In this document: positions 35,330 to 55,544 of the stretch, in pieces
Layout of the letters: every line of letters begins with the position of its first letter
Position numbering within the stretch: position 1 is the first letter of the stretch
Source of the DNA: Callorhinchus milii
Lineage: Eukaryota
DNA: 64,000 nt
Assembly: GCF_018977255.1 (NCBI RefSeq)
Contig: NW_024704743.1
Coordinates: forward strand, 1,612,001-1,676,000
Direction: 5' to 3'
Translations under genes and position numbers: made by a program
The notes under the pieces: generated by a model
What the model was told of the DNA's origin: nothing
Databases searched by the model: none
What the model saw: the letters and a program-made list of their open reading frames with translations, nothing else

Positions 35330-35760
35330 TGAGCGTCGCCGCCTGTCGCGTGTGGGGGATTAATCAGCGCGTCCCCCCATCACCTCCCGCCTCCTCTCAC
35401 CTTCCTGCTCAGGTATTCCCGGACGAGGGAGGCCGCCATCTCCTGCACGACGCCGTTGTTGTCCATCGCTTCCCTCACGGATTCTCCCGTCTCTCTCTCT
35501 CTCGCGCGCTCTCCCTCCGCGGCCAACCGAACCCCGATGACCGGAAGTCCCGCCCATCTCGCGGCGGCTCCCCGCTCCTCCGATTGGTCGAAGCCGGGGC
35601 CCTCCTCTGCCGCCATTGGTTGCGAGCTCAGGGGGGGCGGGACTTCCGGGGTTTTGATGACCGGCGCGGAGCGCGTTGCTGAGGAAACTTGGCGGGTGCG
35701 CGTGCGCAACGGCGGCGGCGCGCGCAGCTCCAACCGCCAACCGCCTTAAAGGGGCAAGGT
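35330..35760 (-). promoter_or_regulatory. CpG-island promoter of MINDY4 with ETS/GC-box, CCAAT, RFX X-box-like and NRF1-like motifs
   Basis: Dense CpG around exon 1. CCGGAAGTCCCGCCC at 35541-35555 and its reverse complement at 35635-35649; ATTGG at 35583 and 35615; GTTGCTGAGGAAAC at 35675-35688; TGCGCGTGCGCA at 35697-35708. Confidence 0.85.
35401..35466 (-). CDS. MINDY4: MINDY4 coding exon 1 (MDNNGVVQEMAASLVREYLSRK)
   Basis: ATG at 35466-35464 inside a CpG island; matches the vertebrate MINDY4/FAM188B N-terminus (human EEVAASLVREFLSRK, from recall); donor AAG|GTGAGA; 66 nt, phase 0. Confidence 0.95.
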
Positions 35761-35949: not shown

Positions 35950-36240
35950 AATCAATCAATGCAATCATGTTCTTGATCAATACAATGATGTTGTTAATCA
36001 ATACAATAATATTACTAATCGATGAAATAATATTATCAATCAATAACATGCTATTGTTAATCAATGCAATAATATCAATCGATGCAATAATATTATTAAT
36101 CAATGAAATAATATCAATCAATACAATAATATTATTAATCAATGAATTAATATTAATCAATAAAATATTATTATTAATCAATACAATAATATTACTAATC
36201 AATGAAATAATATTATTAATCAATAAAATAATATCAATAA
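35950..36240. repeat. AT-rich minisatellite, about 14 units of 21/18 bp (consensus AATCAATRMAATAATATTATT)
   Basis: Directly visible tandem units; they produce the spurious Ile/Asn ORFs 35945-36223 and 35967-36320. Confidence 0.92.
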
Positions 36241-36929
36241 TACAAATGATAATGATGATAACAATATCAATAATACTATTATTAATTAAAGAAGCAACAG
36301 ATTATTCACAATTAAAATAATATTGATATTAATAATATCGCCATCATCATTATAATAAGTAATATCATTAACAGTTATCATTATTTTTATTATTAATAAA
36401 AACAGCGGAATAATATTAATAAAATAATAATAACGTTATTAATAGCGAAAATAATGCTGACGACAATATGGTTATTAGCAATAACATGAATGAGAAGAAG
36501 TCACATTGAGAAAGTGATAACATGGACTCCAACAGTTGAAGTTAATAATAATAATAATAATAATCCTTGTGTTTGATTTCGCGCCTCATCACGTCGTTGC
36601 GACGCCTCAGAGCGCTTCACATACTGGAGTTATTTGCCCGAAGTTGCCCGAAATATTAGACTATCACCGCATCGGTTGTACGTGGGTGTGGGGCGGGCGT
36701 TGTTGTCGCTGTTTACTGAGTCTGCCTGTAGCTACATCGGCGCAGGAACAACCGCGAGAGCTTACGAGGCCACCATCACCACGTCCAGAAGCCATCGGCA
36801 AAGGGGTGGGTTTGGTGCACCCGAGCGGGAGAAAAGGGGGGTCGGGGGGTGGGGGGGGGAGATGAGACGTAGAGAAGGCGTCGAGAGCGAGAGAGAGAGA
36901 TGGAGAGAGAGAGAGAAAGAGAAGGAGTA

Positions 36930-37258
36930 ATAATAATAATAATAATAATAATCCTCGCATTTGATATAGCGCTTTTCACGTCTTCTCGACGTCCCAAAGC
37001 GCTTCACAGAACACACTGTAAAGCGAATTGACTGTATATTTGTGGGCGAACGCGGCGGCCGATTGCGCACAGCAATGTCCCACAAACAGTCGTGGATTGA
37101 AAATGACCAATTTATTATTGTTTTTGGTTTTGGAGGATTATTATTAGGCTCTGTGTGGGGTAAGGAAACTTGCCCGAGGTTTGGCCCTCTGCCTGGAATT
37201 GAACTCAGGTCTCTCGCTCGCAAAGCGAGTGCTCTGACCACTGAGCCACAGGACTCCC
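36930..37258 (-). mobile_element. Internally deleted SINE variant (partner copy at 14322-14545, +)
   Basis: tRNA head and Deu/L2 tail present, but the cctctgtttacc...gatcgcttttcc segment is missing; shares a distinctive spacer with the 14.3-kb copy. Confidence 0.85.
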
Positions 37259-38019
37259 CAAACGCTGTAACGTGCACAGCGGGGATGTAGGAATTCATCC
37301 AGCCCAGGGGTACACACGGCCGGACCGGTCAGTCGACGGGCAACGCTGTCCGCTCAGGCTTCGGTGTTCGCAAATAGCCCTTGGCCTCTCCGCGCAAAAG
37401 GGGCCGTCATTCAGCTTCGTGGTTCCCGGTCAGTCGCTGCGAATTGAACACACGCGGTTTCGAGAAACCGCTCGTTAGGCCACCGTTCGACGCCTAACGT
37501 TAAATGAAGAATAATTCTTGCTTTCGATACCGTGCCGATGACAGACGTATCGCGATCGTCGTCGTCGTCGTCGTAATAATAATCATAATAATCTTTGCAT
37601 TTGATACAGCGCCTCTTCACGCCTTCGAGACGTCTCAAAGCGCCTTCACGGAATGGACCGTGCAGCGAGTTGACTGAGTATCTTGCTCCCCACCGAACTC
37701 CTGGACATCGGCTTATCTCAAGACTAAAGGAACAGGGAGACGGCGGAATCCTCCCCAAAAGCTGTCCATCCCTCTTTCTGCGTCTCAGTTGTTTTACCCC
37801 ACGTGAAACGGAGCCTGTTCAAGACCCCTAGCGGCCCGCGAAGGGCGGGGGGGGGGGGGGTGGGTGGCCTGTCTCTGGGACGAGGGGAGATGGAGGTAGA
37901 AACTCGTAAAAGTAAGACGTAACTTTGGAACAGTTGGACTCATCGCGGGGAGGAACAGTGGAGAGGTACGTCAGTGACGTTGCCCCCGTGGAATCGGGTG
38001 GCATCGGTTTCGTTGCATC

Positions 38020-38055
38020 TCACTGCTTCAATGTCACTTCAACGAGGTAGTAATT
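38020..38055 (-). CDS. Unrecognised small secreted protein, putative last coding exon (NYYLVEVTLKQ-stop)
   Basis: Acceptor ttttaatctcctttgacaccacatag, phase 0, TGA at 38022-38020. Short, so less certain. Confidence 0.55.
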   Translation of the reverse strand, partial: NYYLVEVTLKQ

Positions 38056-38504
38056 CTATGTGGTGTCAAAGGAGATTAAAAGTAATTCACACCTCCTGTG
38101 TCGGGTGAAGTCCCTTTCTGGCGAACGCCTTACACCGCTGGCGACGCAATCACCCACGAAACGTGCAGTCAATTCACAATGGGTTATAGGAACATAGGAA
38201 TTAGGAGCAGGAGCAGGACATTCAGCCCCTCGAGCCGGCCCCGCCATTCAATAAGGTCATGGCTGATCTTCTAACCCAACTCCATCTGCCCGCCTTATCC
38301 CCATATCCCTTAATCCCTCTATCCTTTAGAAACCTATCACCCCTCTATCCTTCAGAAACCTATTATATTCCGTGAAGCGCCTTGAGACGTCTCGAAGACG
38401 TGATAAGGCGCCGTATCAAATGCCTTTGAAGACATTCCCACTTCCGCGAAAGACGTGATTTTTTTTTCTCTCTCTCTGCTCTCTGCCTCGACCAGTTCGT
38501 TTAC

Positions 38505-38588
38505 CTGCAAGGAGCCAGGTTCCAATCGGCAGATGAAACCAAAGGAGAATCTTATGCAGTTATCCTCGAAGCTCATCTCGGGAAAAAT
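38505..38588 (-). CDS. Unrecognised small secreted protein, coding exon 2 (IFPEMSFEDNCIRFSFGFICRLEPGSLQ)
   Basis: Long (TC)n pyrimidine tract + ttgcag acceptor, donor CAG|GTAAAC; 84 nt, phase 0/0; island of unique sequence between repeats. Confidence 0.68.
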
Positions 38589-39170
38589 CTGCAAGGCAGA
38601 GTGAGAGAGAGAGAGAGAGAAAAAAATTAAATCGCACACCTGCGTAAATGATTTAGCAAATCACCGCGTAATAGCCCTTTCCGTTCGATAGGCAGAAAAC
38701 GGCCGTCTTTTCACACTTCGCCTTAACCCGTCTTGGGACCTGGAGAACCCACGGACTCCGAGTGAAACTCCAGGGCAGTGCTGGGGGGGGAGTCGCAGGT
38801 GCCGTCCTTCAGATGAGATGTTAAACCGAGGAGGTCCCGTCTGTCCCTGTTCAGGTGGAGTTCCTCTCTCTCTCTCTCTCTCTCGATGTCCTGGATGACA
38901 CCCCCCCAGATGAGATTGGAAGTTGTTGCAAGTATATTAGTTCCACGATCACCATAAACCAACACCCCCCGCCCAACACAGTCACGACACTTTGACGTTT
39001 CAAGCTTTTTGAGGCACGGTTTCAAATGCAAGGATTGTCTTTCTGTTATTATTCACGAGTTTATGGATCTCGTATCCGTGGTCCGCTGGAACTCTTCTAT
39101 AATCCCTCCAGCTCGCACCCCACACTCCCCCATCCCCAAACCCCACCGCTTCAACCATGAACATTTGGAG

Positions 39171-39570
39171 TGGAGTCCCTGTCGCTCAGGGGTTAGAGCA
39201 CTCGCCTCGCAAGCGAGAGGACCCGGGTTCGATTCCCAGGAAGAGCGAAACCTTGGGCAAGTCTCCTCACTCCACACACACGCACACACACGTCTCTGTT
39301 TACCAGCAATAAGTAGGAACCCGGTTGTTAGTCGATTGGTGGATCGCTTTTCCGGGGGGGGGTCATAAAATCCCTTAAAAAACAATTGTTGACTCAACCC
39401 ACGGGTGTTTGTGGGGACGCTGCTGTGTGCAATTGGCTGCCGCGTTTCGCCCACAACATATACGGTCAAAATCACTTTACAGTATATCCTGTGAAGCGCT
39501 TTGAGAGACGTCTCGAAGACGTGGTAAGGCTCTATATCAAATGCAAGGATTATTATTATTAGTAGTAGTA
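39171..39570 (+). mobile_element. Full-length tRNA(Ala-like)-derived SINE with Deu-type core and L2-derived tail (dominant family in this window)
   Basis: Pol III A box (cgctcagggg) and B box (GGTTCGATTCC); CTCGC-CTCGCAA-GCGAG anticodon arm; core gtttgtgggg..gctgtgtgcaattggctgccgcgtttc; tail gtgaagcgcttt...aaatgcaagg(att)n. Confidence 0.9.
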
Positions 39571-39646
39571 GTATTTGTTTTGCTGGATGGCCCAAAAGGT
39601 TGACCGCCACAGTTCTAGAGCATTGTTTTCCCGTCACACTTGCTAC

Positions 39647-39829
39647 CTTGGTCAGTACGTCAGCAATCTTAGAGGCATTGCTGGGTGCCACCTCTTCTCT
39701 CTCCTGAAGGTCGGGAGCCCCTCGATCCACCGCCTGCTCTATCGGGACGGTCGGAGCGAGCGGGAGGGCTTCAGTCACCATGACTGCTCCAGCGCAGAGG
39801 AGTACGCACAAAGCCAACCAGGCTCTCAT
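39647..39829 (-). CDS. Unrecognised small secreted protein, coding exon 1 (signal peptide MRAWLALCVLLCAGAVMVTEA + acidic segment to ...KIADVLTK)
   Basis: ATG in AAGATGA context (-3 purine); basic-hydrophobic-TEA|LP signal peptide pattern; unique non-repeat sequence; donor AAG|GTAGCA, 183 nt, phase 0. Confidence 0.72.
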
Positions 39830-42368
39830 CTTGTCCCTGCGCTCTTCACTCACAGTCAAGGTTCAAGTGATATGAGTAACTCTGCGTTTCATATTGATTC
39901 GTATCATCAATCATTAGAGATCTTGTTTGGAAAGTCTCTCTCTCTCTCTCTCTCTTTTTTTGGGTGGGGGACACACATCAATTCGAGCTTATTTGTACCA
40001 GAGACCACATTAGTTGCCACATTAGTTTTTATCTTTACTTTGAATGAAAAAATATTTTTATTTCTCCTGTCTTGTCTTTTGCGCCTGCTTCATCCCTGAG
40101 TGGACTTGTCGTGGCAACTCCGCTCGCGTGCAGAACTAACAAGGCCTCGGATACAACGCCTCGTCAGGTCGTCAAAAGGATCTGGGAATTTTGTAGGCAA
40201 ACGATTTGATAATAATCCTGGCGTTTGATATCTCTCTCTTGGGGTATCTGAAACTCCTCAACCTCTCCGTATCTCACAGCCCAAACCCTCGTCCACGCCT
40301 TCGTTACTTCCCGGCTGGACTATTCCAATGCCTTCCTCACTGCTCTCCCCAACTCCACGATGCACAGATTTCAAGAGAGCTCCTGCTAAAGGTAATAATA
40401 ATCTTCAGCAGTGTTTTTGTCGTGACTCGAGTGAACCGCGCACCTTGTTTATTGTGGCGGGTGATCTGTGAAGTTAAAGGTTTTTTTATTAACCAGGAGG
40501 CCGGGAATCCACAAACAGACGATGGATAATTGAGCCAAATTCTCTCAGGAATTGCCACACGGAAATAAATACGCAAGCAGCCGAGCAGTAATTATTTCAG
40601 GGCAGTCAGAGATGCGTAGAAAAGCGGTCATTATTCAATTTTTTAAAAAAAAATTGGAAAGAAGCCAATGGTTTGCAGCCTCAGGCCAGGGCTTTGAACT
40701 CGCATAGTCCAGGCTGACACTCCGGGCAGATCCAGAAGAGCGCTGTATTCTCAGAGGTGCTCTCCTTTGGATGAGGCCGTTCAGGTCCCATCTCAAGACC
40801 CTCCTCTCCAACCTCGCCTTTGGTCACCCTCCTGCCCCCTACCCTCCCCGCTCTCCACCCCTCCCAACCCCCAGCTCGAGTCCAAGTCCCTGACTGTCCA
40901 GGTAGTAAAGGTAATTAGAGCTCTCGCCTCGCGAGCGAGAGGACCCGGGTTGAACTCCCGGGCGGGTCGAAACCTTCGAAAGTTTCCTTGCTCCACACGC
41001 TTATTAGCCGATCAGCGGATCGCTTTCTGGGGGTAATAACCCCTTCAAAGTAACTAACAAAATAAATAGACAGTTAAATGCAAGTATTATTATTATTAAT
41101 CAAATAGTAAGATTTTTTGAAGAAGAATTAAGCAGCGATAAAGGACGCTGTTTGGTTAAGCGCGTGGAAAGCTAAATTAACGCAGCCGTTGGATGCAATT
41201 TTGGACATGATTTTCTTTTCTGTACTGATATTTATTTTTTCAGAATTAATGTTTCTTTATTCCCTGACAGTGTACTGCCTCTGTTTACGGTATTTGTTTG
41301 GGTTCACTTCCCGTGGATTAGCAGTCAAGTTGCTGTGATTCCGCCTCCCCTCACGAACCCTCCAATGGAAAGCTTTTACAAGTAATTCAGTTTGAATTTA
41401 CTAGAATCGAGAATAGAGGAAGAAATTCCTTGATTCAGCAACGCAAGCGAGGTTTGAAAGTTGTGTTCACCTAAGCATTTAATAATTCTCTGCTGCTCAG
41501 CACCTTTGCAGGTAATTCGCCATAATAATTAGTAATAATAACAATAATAATCCTTGCATTGATGTTGCGCCTTATCAGGTCTTTGAGACATTTCAAAGCG
41601 CTTTACAGAATATGTAAAGTGTAGTGACGGTATATTTCGTGGGTGAAACGCACAGCAGTGTCCCCACAAACAGTCGTGGATTAAGTGACCAAATCATATT
41701 TAAAATTTATTTTGAAGGAATTATTACCCCCGGAAAACTGATCCGCCGATCGACTAATAACCGGGTTCCTATTTACTTTTACTGCTACATAAACAGAGGC
41801 GCGCGCGCGTGTGTGTGCGTGTGTGGGTGTGTGTGTGGAGTGAGGAAACTTGCCCGAGGTTTCGCCCTGACCTGCCCGGGAATCGAACCCAGGACCTCTC
41901 GCTCGCGAGGCGAGGGCTCCAACCCCTGAGCTACAGGGACTCCACTCGATGGCATGAACCCACCTTTTCTCACCGGGCTCAGAGATGGAAATAAATGAAT
42001 GCACTACTACGTGCATATTGCTGGCATGCGCTTCTCCTTCGATAAAAAATGAATAGGCATCTAATGGCATGTTACCAGCCCACTGGTCTCGGCAAAGCTC
42101 AATATTTTATCGGCTACGGAATAATTTGAAGGAATTATGACCAATCTATTATCAGTGTTATTTTTTTTGAAGGAATTATTACTCTCTGGAAAGATGACGC
42201 CAAATAGGCCAAAGGGCTTTCTTCATCCAAACCATTGTGGCGGATGAATGCTGGCGAGGATTGGTTGGGTTGAACGACCTGTTTTTTGTGGCTGTGAAGA
42301 CTATCTGTGTAAACCTAACACAGGTGGATGTCAAAGATCCCATGGCGCTATTCCAAAAGATGAGGGAG

Positions 42369-44581: not shown

Positions 44582-47500
44582 GCAAGTTTCTTTACTCCAC
44601 ACACACACACACACACACACACACGCGCCTCTGTTTACCGGCAGTCAGTAGGAACCCGGTTGTTAGTCGATTGGCGATCGCTTTTCCGGAGGCAATAATC
44701 CCCTCGTGAAAAAAAATTTGGTCGCTCAACCCGCGGCTGTTTGTGAGCGACGCTGCTGCGCGCAATCGGCCGCCGCGTTTCACCCACAAAATACACAGTC
44801 GATTCACATTACAGTGTATCCCGCGAAGCGCTTTGAGACGTCTCGAAGACGTGATCAGGCGCTGTGTCAAATGCCAGGATTACTATTATTATTATTATTA
44901 TAGACTGTATGACAACAACTTGAATTTATCCAGCGGGCTTCACGTGGGGTAGCGTCTCGGAGCGCTTGACGACCACAGGACTGAAGCACGTAGTCCTTTC
45001 CCACCTTCTCAGCAAGTCCGCCCGAGTTTCTGATCTGATGACCGTCAACGGAGAAAACAGGGCGGACTTTTCCAATGAATAATGTGTTTTCAAGAGCCAG
45101 TGCGGTGAATCCCTTTGCAAGGCCAGCTCTTTTCACGCTTTGAGTACCACAAACATTCGACACGATTGCACTCAGCGGCAAACCAATATATTACTGTCAG
45201 CCACTAAAATTGCATTAAACGTCTTGTAACAGTTGACTACACCTTCATACCACAGCAGCAATTATCGGTGGGGAGAGGAGGAAACCTCACTCCCCCCTCC
45301 CAGGAGTTGGGGGGCTGACATTTTAACCCGTGCAACTACCATTATTCTGTACTCGATACTCTCATCGTGCAGTCCCTGTTGCTCGGTGGTCAGAACCCTC
45401 GCCTCGCAAGCGGTTCGATTCCCGGGTCAGGGCGAAACATTGGGCAAGTTTAGTCACTCCACACACACACACACACACACATAACTTTTCCGGGGGTAAT
45501 AATCTCTTTTAAAAAAAAATTGCGCTGTATCAATTCAAAGATTATTAACCCAAAATGGTGCAATGGAAATTCACTGCAGCGCTGATTTGCTTGCCCATGG
45601 TGGCCCAGAAGTTATTACTGAATGACAAGATCCTGGTGGATGTGGTTGTAAAGTATTATGGGAGAAGCTGTAAACGTTTTTATGCTTCTGTGTTTTCTCT
45701 CGCGACAGGCCGAATTAATGACGTGCATTTCTTTATCTCTGTAGACCAGAGACCTTTAGAAATCTTGGCTCCGGATACTCTTGGTTTGAAGGACGTGAGG
45801 ATTGGCATCGAAAAAAAACGCAGCTTTTAAAGACTAAACTGTTAGATTAACTGTGGTAGATAAATAGTCAAAGGAATAATAAATCCTTGCATTTAACATT
45901 GGGAAAGATTTTACTATCAAAAGTATTCGAAAAGAGAAGGCAAGAAAGGAGCTTCTGGTGCAGCAATCAGATAAAATTGGTGGTTCACTTGATGGCCGTT
46001 TAAGGGAAATGGCTTGATCGCGAGATGGACTCCAGCCTGCTTCACGAGCCCGGCCCTAACCACCCCACCCTCGGCGCTCGGGCTTTCAGCCTATCTGCCC
46101 CCTGTTCCCCGGAACTCCATCCCACAATCCCTGCGGCTCATCCCCTCCTTATCCCCTTTTACGGTCCATCTTAAGACCCCTGAGGGACACTTGACTGTTA
46201 TCTTCAGTTACTTTACCCCCTCACCCCACCCAACCCCTTGATTTCCCACAGCTCAGGAGGCAAGCCCACACTGTTAAGCACCTTGGAGTCCTGTCGTGTA
46301 GTGATTAGTGCGCTCACCTCTCACGGGAGAGGCCCCGTCTCCAAGCGCTTCACAGAATATACTGTAAAGTGCAGTGACTGTGTGTTTTGCGGGCGAAACG
46401 CGGCAGCCAATTCCGCCCAGCGGCGTCCCCCACACAAACAGCCGTGGACTGAAGTGACCAATTTATTACTACTGTTGTGCACGTGAAAGGAATAGATAGG
46501 ATATCTTGAACAACCGCAAGAAAATTCTTTGCAAAAGCCTCTCCAATTCAAAACACCAAGAGACAACGAATGGGATCCAATATTCCTGCTGTTTCCGCTG
46601 ACACGTCGCAAATTGAACAATCTTTCCCCTGTCTTTCCGTATCATTGGATCACGGCTCTAAACTTGCCCCTATTGTCGGCCGGTGTAATTGTTTTTCACA
46701 GTAGTTTTCTTGTACACTTCCAACTCCTTCGGATCAGATGTTAGCATCGGTGCCATGACCCGCTCTACCTTCCCCCTACTCTGCCACTGTCTCACACCGC
46801 AGACCCCCCGAGACCCTCACACATGCATTCATAACATCGAGGCTCAACTGTGGAAACCTCTCCGACCTCCTAACCTGCTACCACACTGCTCGCTCCCTCC
46901 ACTCAGCGGGCTCCGGCCTGCTTCACGTCCCCCGGCCCACCATTGGTGGACAGGACTTCTGCCACTCTGCCCCCACCCTCTGGAACTCTATCTCGCAGTC
47001 CTTCCGCCTCGCCCACTCCCTCGCCACCTTCAAGACCCATCTCAAGACCCTCCTCTTTGACCGTGCTTTCGATCTCCCTGGTTCTCCCCCACCTGCCCTC
47101 CCCACCTCCCCGATCCTAAACCACCCCACTCCTCTCACCCAGCGAAACCCAGCGTACAGCCTGGCTCAGTTCATCGCTCTCTCTGGCCTCAGAGTCAGAC
47201 GATTGTAGGTTCGAGCTCCACTGCAGGACTTGGACCTCACGCAGTCGAAGCTGACGTTCTAACGCAGCCCTGGGGGTGTGTTTCACGGTTAGAGGTGCCG
47301 TCCTGCGGATTGGATGAGACGTTGAGAAATTGAGGACCCGTCTGCCTGTTCAAGATCCCCATTGCGCTATCCCGCCTAACAATCTCCCAAATAATCTAGT
47401 CTTATTATTATTATTACAATTACTATTACTATTATTATTACTATTACTATTATTATTATTCATAAATAAAGCTGTTCGCACACTCACTCCGTGGCTATTT

Positions 47501-52800: not shown

Positions 52801-55544
52801 CTTTGCTGTTAGTGTTGTGCCTTTCACTCCAGAGGTCATCTCAAAGAGCTTAAGAGGATTGATGTTGAAAAAAATTGTCCACTCAACCCATGGCTGTTTG
52901 TGGGGGACGCTGCGGTGCGCAATCGGCCGCCGCGTTTCGCCCACAAGATATACAGTCAATTCACTTGACAGCGTATCCCGTGAAGCGCGTTGAGACGTCT
53001 CGAAGATGTGATAAGCCGCTGTGTTAAATGTCGGGATTATTATTATGATAAAACGGGACTTGGGTTTAACATCTCATCCGAAGGATGTCACCCCCAGTAA
53101 TGTCAGTTTGGCCATTGTGGGTTTACGGACCTGATGTGGGGCTTGAACCCACAGCCTTCTGACTCAGCGGAGAGAGTGGAACCCAACTGAGCCAGGCCGA
53201 CACCCAAATCCCACCGCCAAGTGGCTTGTCTGAAATGGGAACAGCAACCAGATCATCCCGAGGGATGCAGCGCCATCAACAGTAACAAGTTACATTTGTA
53301 CAGCGCCTGTCATGTCAGGCGATGAATCAATATGGTGCTTCCCTCTCCCTCTTACTGACCTAACTTCCTACCCAGTGCGCAGGTCACTTTCTCTTACAGA
53401 GGGAGGGACTGAGTGGTCTTTAAGATTCTGAAGAGACCCGATCATGTCGATCACAATAAGCCGTTTTATCTTGCGCTGAACAGTCGAACCAGAGGACACG
53501 CACGGCCTGCAATTGAAGGAGGGGGGAAATTCAGACAGACACCTGGGGAAACATTATTTCGGGGAGCGAGCAGTAAACTGCTGGAACAGGTTCCCGAGGG
53601 AGAGAGAAGTTGTTGTTTGTTTCAAGAACAAACGAGATAGGTTTCCGCTAGAAAGTAATACCTCGGGGATACAGAGTGTAGTTTGGAACACGACATGGGA
53701 CACGACTGCCGGGATGGTGGAGGGCGAACTAGACGGGGGGGGGGGGGAGTGGGGGTTGGTGGTGGGGCGGAAATGGAGGGATAAATCCTTCTCTTCCTGC
53801 CGTCATAAAAGTGAATGAGAAAGCAGCCAACCTCCCTCCATCCTTCGAGCAACACTCAGCGACTCCCATAGGAGATACTTCAGAGGAGAACTTGGCATCT
53901 GATCCGCAAAGAAAATAATAAAGCTTCTGCACGTCTCTATAAGTGCCGGAAAAGAATTCATAATATATAAGACTCCGTCCGCCTCCCCTCGCTGAAACTG
54001 GTTTGCCTCCGGCGGGGTAATAACTAGTGGCTTTTATTTTTTTTTGCGGAAACTTCAATATTGTTTCTTAACCCATGGAAGACAAAGCTTTGACTGTGTA
54101 CGATTTTGCCGGCCGAACGCCACAGCCAATTTGCGAGCAAACCAGGTTCCCCCCAAACAACGGCCAAGTGAAGGCATGAGCAGTGTAGCTGGGGGAGTGG
54201 TGGGGGGTTGGGGGGGGGGGTTGGTGGGAGGGGGTGATGGGTGGGGGGAGGCCGTTGTCGATTTGCCTTTCACCCGTTTGCAAACGAAATGCACGGTTTG
54301 TTGGTCACTCGAGGAATGAGATGGCTCATTGCTGGATATCCCAAACAGCATTTTATCCCTAAACCAGCCCCGTGCTCCCAGGCGCTCTACAGCTTATAAT
54401 AATAATATTAATAATAATAATAATAGTTGCATTTGATATAGTGCCTTGTCACGCCTTCGCAGAATATACTCTAAAGTGGATTGACGGTATATTTTACGGG
54501 CGACAATATACGCTTCCTGCTTTCTGTGATGAGCATGAGCTTTAGAAACAACAATGTCATCGGATTTCGACACCTTCACACTCATCTTCGAATCCCTCCA
54601 TGAACCGGAACCTTGTGGACCTGCTCACTCCTCAATCCACAACCCTCTGCCTCCCCTCGAGTGGCTCCGGCCTCCTGCTTGTCCCTCGTGCCCTCCGTTG
54701 CACCATCGGTGGCCGCACTTTCACCATCTAACAGGTTCCTACTGACTGCTGGTAAACAGAGGCGCGCGTGTGTGTGTGTGTGTGTGTGTGCGGAGTGAGG
54801 AAACTTGCCCAATGTCTCGCCCTGACCTGCCCGGGAATCAAACCCGGGTCCTCTCGCTCGCGAGGCGAGGGCTCTAACCCCTGAGCTCCAAGACTCTCAG
54901 AAATCGATCCATTGAGAGATAGAGAGAGACAGTGTCACTGGGATAACAGACCCGCGGAGTTTGGTGAAGGTGAGGATGGGGGTGGCAGAGTTTTGGAGAC
55001 ATCTATGGATGGCGGAGCACGGGAGAGCAGGTGAGGAATGTTAGCATGTGAGTTAAGTTAATGAAAGGCAGTCGTCCGATAGAACAGACCTGGATGATGT
55101 TTTCGTGCGGAGGGCAAAGGCGGCGGGGGAGGAGGGTGTGTGGGGGGTGGTATGTGTGGGAGTGAAAACGAACCAGCTTATCTGCCTCAATTCCCGGTGG
55201 AAATTAAAATATACTTTCGAGCAGCATTGGAAGATTTTTATCACCAGCCGGGCTTCAGCGCTGTAATTTGGTACTGGCTATCAGCTCCGCTTTAAAGCAA
55301 GTCTCCTTTATATGGAGCCGGCAATAATATTGCAGGGCCTATAAATCATCTCAGGCGCACGTGTCCATTGAGGGTTCCAGTTACTGCACGCGAGGCATTT
55401 TAAAGCAGGATAGCGAGGCAAGAGACTGTCAAACTCCAACTCTGGAGGCCTGTAGTTCAGGGGTTAGAGCGCTCGCCTCGCAAGCGAGAGGACCTGGGTT
55501 TGATTCCCGGGTCAGGGCGAAACATTGGGCAAGTTTCCTCACTC

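Follow-up and report, generated by a model that had tools for sequence, protein, structure and literature searches.

A spliced gene of three exons, coding for a small secreted protein, lies on the minus strand of a 64,000 nt stretch of the Callorhinchus milii genome (assembly GCF_018977255.1, contig NW_024704743.1, positions 1,612,001 to 1,676,000; this whole stretch is called the window, and its numbering is used except where another contig coordinate is given). Its splicing, its reading frame and its conservation in a shark were observed directly. The product has 98 aa, with cysteines at positions 8, 12, 72 and 81. The initial annotation, made from the DNA letters, had proposed a gene for a secreted single-disulfide protein without a family at this place, a proposal borne out by a spliced contig, a shark homologue and the lack of any Pfam match. 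The reading favoured here, held tentatively and a little short of an even chance, is that of a secreted glycoprotein ligand whose helix and disulfide hairpin bind a conserved partner.

The coding part of exon 1 (39647..39829) specifies residues 1–61, comprising the signal peptide, an acidic spacer, a glycosylation sequon and most of an amphipathic helix. It is followed by intron 1 (38589..39646, 1058 nt), exon 2 (38505..38588, residues 62–89), intron 2 (37437..38504, 1068 nt) and the coding part of exon 3 (37407..37436), which adds nine residues (90–98) and a TGA stop codon at 37409-37407. Both introns are GT-AG and phase 0. Contigs of four public sequencing runs (X1, X2, X6 and X8) were compared with the gene over 36960-42300. 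Twelve runs had been found, five of them containing exon 1; none is recorded as RNA, and the RNA-like type of X1 is a guessed one. In X1, a 379 nt contig (record 3, depth 311) consists of 39733-39647, 38588-38505 and 37436-37229 with nothing between, omitting both introns; its positions 209-292 correspond to 38505-38588 and 293-379 to 39647-39733. A second X1 contig spans 39706-39821, bringing the cover of exon 1 to 39647-39821. In the DNA-like run X2 the exon-exon joint is absent, and contigs cross the exon-intron boundaries. Genome-wide first-look searches gave one copy of each exon, and because of this a retrocopy does not account for the spliced contig. The spliced form was found in one of the three RNA-like runs examined, in contigs that inform on neither level nor tissue. 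X6 yielded a single 152 nt contig within exon 3 (depth 4.5) and no spliced piece among those listed. Among the pieces listed for X8 none lay on the exons, and sampled words of the gene were absent from X7 and X9-X12, neither result being proof of silence.

In the initial annotation exon 3 had been placed at 38020..38055, giving a protein of 100 aa that ended in a beta-strand. All three of its segments are present in window-unique sequence (by self-comparison of the window), with GT/AG ends, phase 0 and the translation given, and its first junction (39647/38588) is the one carried by the X1 contig. The second junction (38505/38055) did not hold. The contig passes from 38505 to 37436, over the proposed exon, which lies inside intron 2 (CT..AC on the plus strand) and has almost no X1 cover, in contigs that drop rare variants. 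The final strand belongs to an exon absent from the X1 transcript, and the length of 100 aa gives way to 98 aa. The RNA-supported exon 3 sits in a fourth window-unique island (37261-37572) that had gone unused. Aligned with the tail of the catshark homologue described below, its translation scores +10 (2/9 identical) versus −12 (0/11) for the earlier candidate, and in a scan of 107 AG acceptors the RNA-supported one ranks third and the earlier one 90th, two chance acceptors scoring higher than the former. The acceptor at 38055 may have a rare alternative use, in a rare isoform. The corrected exon 3 matters to anyone cloning or synthesising the protein. It had also been pointed out, correctly, that the gene is hidden in the track of open reading frames, and the reason is that the frame of exon 1 stays open over 258 codons, reaching into the repeat-containing intron 1.

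At the 5′ side, the X1 contigs listed reach 39821, leaving 8 nt uncovered as far as the ATG; this start codon is supported by the aligned signal peptide of the catshark protein, by an A at −3 and by a stop in the same frame, 12 codons farther upstream. The 3′ untranslated region runs from 37406 to at least the reach of the X1 contig (37229..37406) and enters a repeat, as seen by self-comparison. The nearest candidate poly(A) signal, AATAAA at 37116-37111, is carried by an interspersed repeat (seen over 37260-37000), and the gene may take its signal from that repeat. Three coding variants were seen. A change at 38553, giving I73M, occurs in both X1 and X2 (one contig per run) and yields the methionine of the catshark protein, while changes at 38579 and 37427 (E65K and G93R) occur in one contig of X2 only.

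Exon 2, searched by phmmer as 32 residues including flanks against 1.84 billion representative proteins with matches listed to E 0.001, returned one match (E 7e-7). This is a hypothetical protein of 103 aa, scyTo_0018515, from the catshark Scyliorhinus torazame (GCB77804.1; UniRef100_A0A401PXC2), a gene prediction that is the sole member of its 90% cluster. The two proteins are collinear from end to end, through signal peptide, spacer, sequon, amphipathic stripe, C-x8-C ring and the R-L that starts the tail. Their global alignment scores 198, against a mean of −14 and a maximum of 25 for 2000 shuffles. When the catshark protein was searched back, only this locus of the genome was found, and the two genes are probably orthologous. 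Identity is unevenly distributed: 10/19 in the signal peptide, 9/28 in the spacer, 2/11 in the helix, 20/28 in exon 2 and 2/9 in the tail. Within exon 2 it amounts to 7/10 before the ring, 6/10 in the ring and 7/8 after it, and the polar residues E-D-N and E-P-G-S outside the ring are invariant between the two species, a pattern easier to reconcile with a specific partner than with a membrane. The hydrophobic stripe I55-V58-L59-I62-F63, which spans the lysine at the junction of exons 1 and 2, is mirrored by V52-A55-L56-I59-L60 of the catshark. In contrast to the Callorhinchus milii protein, that of the catshark has dibasic sites (KK and KR) and two sequons, and its helix is more cationic and its tail longer. 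The comparison is one of two sequences, across a chimaera-shark split that the accessible part of PMC6238376 puts at 300–420 million years, and the module would have been retained for that long. Restriction to cartilaginous fishes, suggested in the initial annotation as a possible lineage restriction, fits the single shark match and is provisional, coming from one exhaustive search with a query of only 32 residues.

The features described earlier for the N-terminal two exons were found in place, namely a hydrophobic N-terminus, an NAS sequon at residue 51 (39671..39679), an amphipathic segment at 53–63 and Cys72 and Cys81. The signal peptide is predicted by a simple heuristic to occupy residues 1–21 (39767..39829), with a hydrophobic core, T at −3 and A at −1; in the catshark the same T/A pair precedes a predicted cleavage after residue 19, and both N-termini are hydrophobic. 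By the heuristic used, neither protein has a later hydrophobic 19-mer above 0.4, and no transmembrane segment is predicted beyond the signal peptide. With the features of a cleavable signal peptide present in both species, the protein is probably secreted. Signal cleavage, glycosylation and the disulfide are all predictions. The catshark sequon, at residue 47, is displaced by one column in the alignment, and an amphipathic segment follows the sequon in both proteins (hydrophobic moment 0.67 and 0.83). The aromatic ring Cys72-x8-Cys81 (38529..38558) is modelled as a beta-hairpin closed by the putative disulfide. An AlphaFold model of the catshark core (residues 40–93, alignment of two rows) shows two helices with three short strands between them, the Cys hairpin being among the strands, at a mean pLDDT of 73 and a pTM of 0.36; the full-length model, with pLDDT 48, has the same Cys hairpin. 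At this pTM of the core and this pLDDT of the full-length model, a stable fold is a tentative reading. Fold searches gave a best Z of 4.6 for the full-length model, in alignments that include a signal peptide modelled as strands, and 3.0 for the core; neither E 0.001 nor Z 5 was reached by any match, a result that excludes no family. A homodimer prediction made without an alignment scored 0.02, a value that decides nothing about a dimer.

Neither the exons nor the full catshark protein matched any Pfam family, and nothing was found among PDB sequences under E 0.1. Word-based protein searches gave one candidate for exon 1 and four for exon 2 with 12 intron-coded residues, none of them scored; the latter search missed the catshark protein and is hence insensitive. 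Of 51 candidates in a profile search, which is equally insensitive, the catshark protein was the only one returned. In the ESM Atlas, exon 1 had no usable match, and the catshark protein gave feature scores of 0.78 and 0.76 with TM ≤0.46, values that speak neither for novelty nor for absence. Genome-wide first-look searches found no paralogue, and with a profile of the two species over 740 kb, including a receptor-aquaporin cluster on contig C23, the best non-self match had E 0.09; the gene is single-copy. On sequence grounds it can be taken to found a family without classification among the small secreted single-disulfide proteins. A homologous prediction is already public as a hypothetical protein, so the sequence family is not entirely new to the databases. 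The open-licence literature yielded no paper on this protein or on its catshark homologue. The accessible part of a plasma proteome of the nurse shark (PMC9207270) reports ten uncharacterised proteins, among which a match to this one is conceivable, and the accessible part of PMC13109646 makes no mention of MINDY4.

The gene was said to lie just upstream of MINDY4, and this position is supported. A probable first coding exon of MINDY4 is found on the minus strand at 35401..35466, 1.9 kb past the stop codon, and two exons further downstream match the Pfam domain MINDY-3_4_CD. The N-terminus encoded at 35401..35466 is one that we take to be that of MINDY4. An in-frame ATG 50 codons before it (minus strand, seen over 35380-35616) could extend this N-terminus. 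An AT-rich minisatellite of period 21 (16 copies, 35954-36281) lies between the gene and the MINDY4 promoter. Class-B GPCR genes follow beyond MINDY4, where the peptide of a transmembrane-7 exon occurs twice on the plus strand, 10.8 kb apart (G000:C2:1570171-1570212 and 1580961-1581002), representing either tandem near-identical receptor copies or an assembly duplication; we presume the receptors to be GHRHR-like. In the first 200 kb upstream of the gene, no convincing Pfam match was found among the 60 of 314 long unique open reading frames that were scanned. Farther upstream, the opposite strand carries exons of a DPP4-family gene (C2:1.887-1.896 Mb), and beyond these come BRCT, rhodopsin-type GPCR and INSIG matches (80 of 783 open reading frames scanned), a block which we take to be DPP6-PAXIP1-HTR5A-INSIG1. 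No aquaporin or INMT-like match was seen near MINDY4 (G000:C2:1.45-2.08 Mb), match counts in these scans being lower bounds. MINDY4 here adjoins the DPP-family/BRCT/INSIG block, unlike the human order, presumably INMT-MINDY4-AQP1-GHRHR. At G000:C23:9.39-9.60 Mb, class-B GPCR hormone-binding domains cluster around an aquaporin, in an arrangement that is probably paralogous to the MINDY4 region, and a copy of the new gene was absent from the 200 kb scanned there. The neighbourhood gives no family assignment, and proximity to receptors is no evidence of pairing with them. Elsewhere in the window, two open reading frames look protein-like by eye, at 45555-45830 (plus strand, 91 aa) and 54394-54624 (minus strand, 76 aa).

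Under the favoured reading, a 98 aa preprotein made from a single-copy gene of cartilaginous fishes would lose its 21-residue signal peptide, and an acidic glycoprotein of about 77 residues would be secreted. The spacer and the tail would be flexible and free to drift. The working part would be residues ~53–90, made up of the amphipathic helix, the aromatic beta-hairpin closed by the disulfide, and a short conserved stretch. This module most likely binds a conserved protein partner, either a receptor or an extracellular protein, and the secreted molecule would then serve as a ligand, either whole or with nothing but its N-terminal spacer shortened. A ligand is favoured because selection concentrates on a short, polar-invariant module of a single-copy secreted protein. 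The conservation indicates that the module matters, not that it signals. A hormone-like role, one of two offered in the initial annotation, is plausible. A further step is possible but doubtful. In it, the exon-2 module would be the active part of a new ligand family, of peptide hormone or cytokine-like kind, that has its own receptor, persisted through the separation of chimaeras and sharks, and in bony vertebrates has disappeared or changed beyond recognition.

The closest competitor is a classical prohormone, in which convertase cuts after Lys61 and Arg90 would free exon 2 as a cyclic hormone or neuropeptide of 28–29 residues. Peptide precursors usually run from a signal peptide through an acidic spacer to the conserved peptide, the layout that this gene product has. 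The conserved block is a phase 0-0 exon edged by basic residues in both species, with identity falling sharply on either side. The absence of dibasic sites noted earlier holds for the Callorhinchus milii protein but not for that of the catshark, where KK (57-58) and KR (86-87) stand exactly at the block edges, and position P8 of the first site is basic in both species (K54/R51). Against such processing, the sites here are only monobasic (TK and QR); convertases disfavour an aliphatic P1′, and the P1′ residue is aliphatic at both sites in both species. There is no Gly amidation signal, and the amphipathic stripe runs across the first site. Release of the block as a free peptide is judged unlikely, and the ligand reading with at most a trimmed spacer is preferred to it.

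A structural or bulk role in mucus, matrix or the secretion of a gland, with assembly by way of the alternating aromatic beta-strands, is rather improbable. The ring does have a high beta hydrophobic moment in the two species (0.67 and 0.94), and a spliced contig in one of three RNA-like runs would fit a specialised tissue, but the repeats or compositional bias typical for matrix proteins are absent, and the gene is single-copy with tight conservation over a short, polar-rich module. Slightly more improbable still is the host-defence role that was the other suggestion of the initial annotation, read here as a membrane-active peptide of helix and disulfide loop held inactive by the acidic spacer. 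The predicted layout resembles that of nicomicin-1 as given in the accessible part of PMC6265681, and the catshark helix has a net charge of +4. Set against the cationic nicomicins of that text, the helix here has a net charge of +1, exon 2 of −2 and the mature protein a pI of 4.6. The cationic helix is also the least conserved part of the protein, while acidic residues are invariant, and the gene is single-copy; host defence is disfavoured on these grounds.

It is quite improbable that the gene is a diverged orthologue of a named small secreted protein of bony vertebrates that was overlooked, an explanation compatible with the other readings. The shortness of the exhaustive query, its cut-off and the insensitivity of the word-based search leave room for it, but no Pfam family or PDB sequence under the thresholds above was found, MCH and C17orf67/DUF4543 have their own loci elsewhere, and no paralogue occurs in the 740 kb searched. 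That the locus yields a non-coding transcript or a chance open frame is very improbable: no protein search returned the Callorhinchus milii product, suggesting that it has no protein annotation, but the frame, the cysteines and the signal peptide are all conserved in a homologue that is collinear, and exon 1 alone scores 72 against the catshark protein with a shuffle maximum of 40.

To our knowledge, the secreted-peptide families of vertebrates are thought to be mostly catalogued. A conserved, spliced gene without a family is a concrete candidate ligand of cartilaginous fishes, with a core of fewer than 40 residues that could be synthesised and tried on orphan receptors. Should it prove ancestral, with a loss in bony vertebrates, the set of signals attributed to the first jawed vertebrates would grow; should it be specific to chondrichthyans, it may underlie one of their traits. 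For now it counts as a good lead rather than as a discovered mechanism.

Several known families invite comparison. Somatostatin and urotensin II carry an F-W-K core within a C-terminal ring, and were rejected as the mature region has no Trp in either species and there is no Pfam match. Natriuretic peptides have a ring of 17 residues, and were set aside with the ring here being of 10. Hepcidin, beta-defensin and LEAP2 have 8, 6 or 4 mature cysteines, which does not agree with the two mature cysteines of both proteins. Tachykinin and RFamide peptides have a C-terminal amide motif followed by Gly and basic residues, and such a Gly-basic amidation site is absent from both proteins. The precursor of melanin-concentrating hormone, PMCH (PF05824), is likewise secreted with one C-x8-C ring near its C-terminus, and the ring of the genome's own MCH has the same spacing. 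The present protein does not match that Pfam family, and beyond the cysteines no ring residue is shared; PMCH is a separate gene on contig C5 with a different ring sequence, and identity with it was rejected. C17orf67/DUF4543 (PF15076) is also a small secreted chordate protein, with the Atlas feature score of 0.76 to the catshark protein, a level exceeded by one third of shuffled proteins; there is no PF15076 match, that family has its own locus on contig C20, and it was rejected. The SAM domain of MAP3K15 was matched at E 0.1 by the catshark protein and at 0.2 by the profile, and not by Callorhinchus milii exon 2; at the matched place the model, of modest confidence, has a beta-hairpin versus the all-helical SAM fold. 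The nearest likeness in architecture is to nicomicin-1, of the Rana-box kind (PDB 6hn9), in which an amphipathic N-terminal helix precedes a six-residue disulfide loop (PMC6265681, accessible part), an order also suggested by the model here. This is an architectural analogy only: in the fold search nicomicin-1 ranked 48th (Z 2.1, rmsd 1.9, 31 aligned residues), which is noise level; the query model has pLDDT 73 and pTM 0.36. In contrast to nicomicin-1, the region here is acidic to neutral and has no BRICHOS domain, and where a net cationic peptide with a C-terminal loop might be looked for, the 10-residue ring stands away from the C-terminus, followed by eight residues of the conserved block and then the tail.
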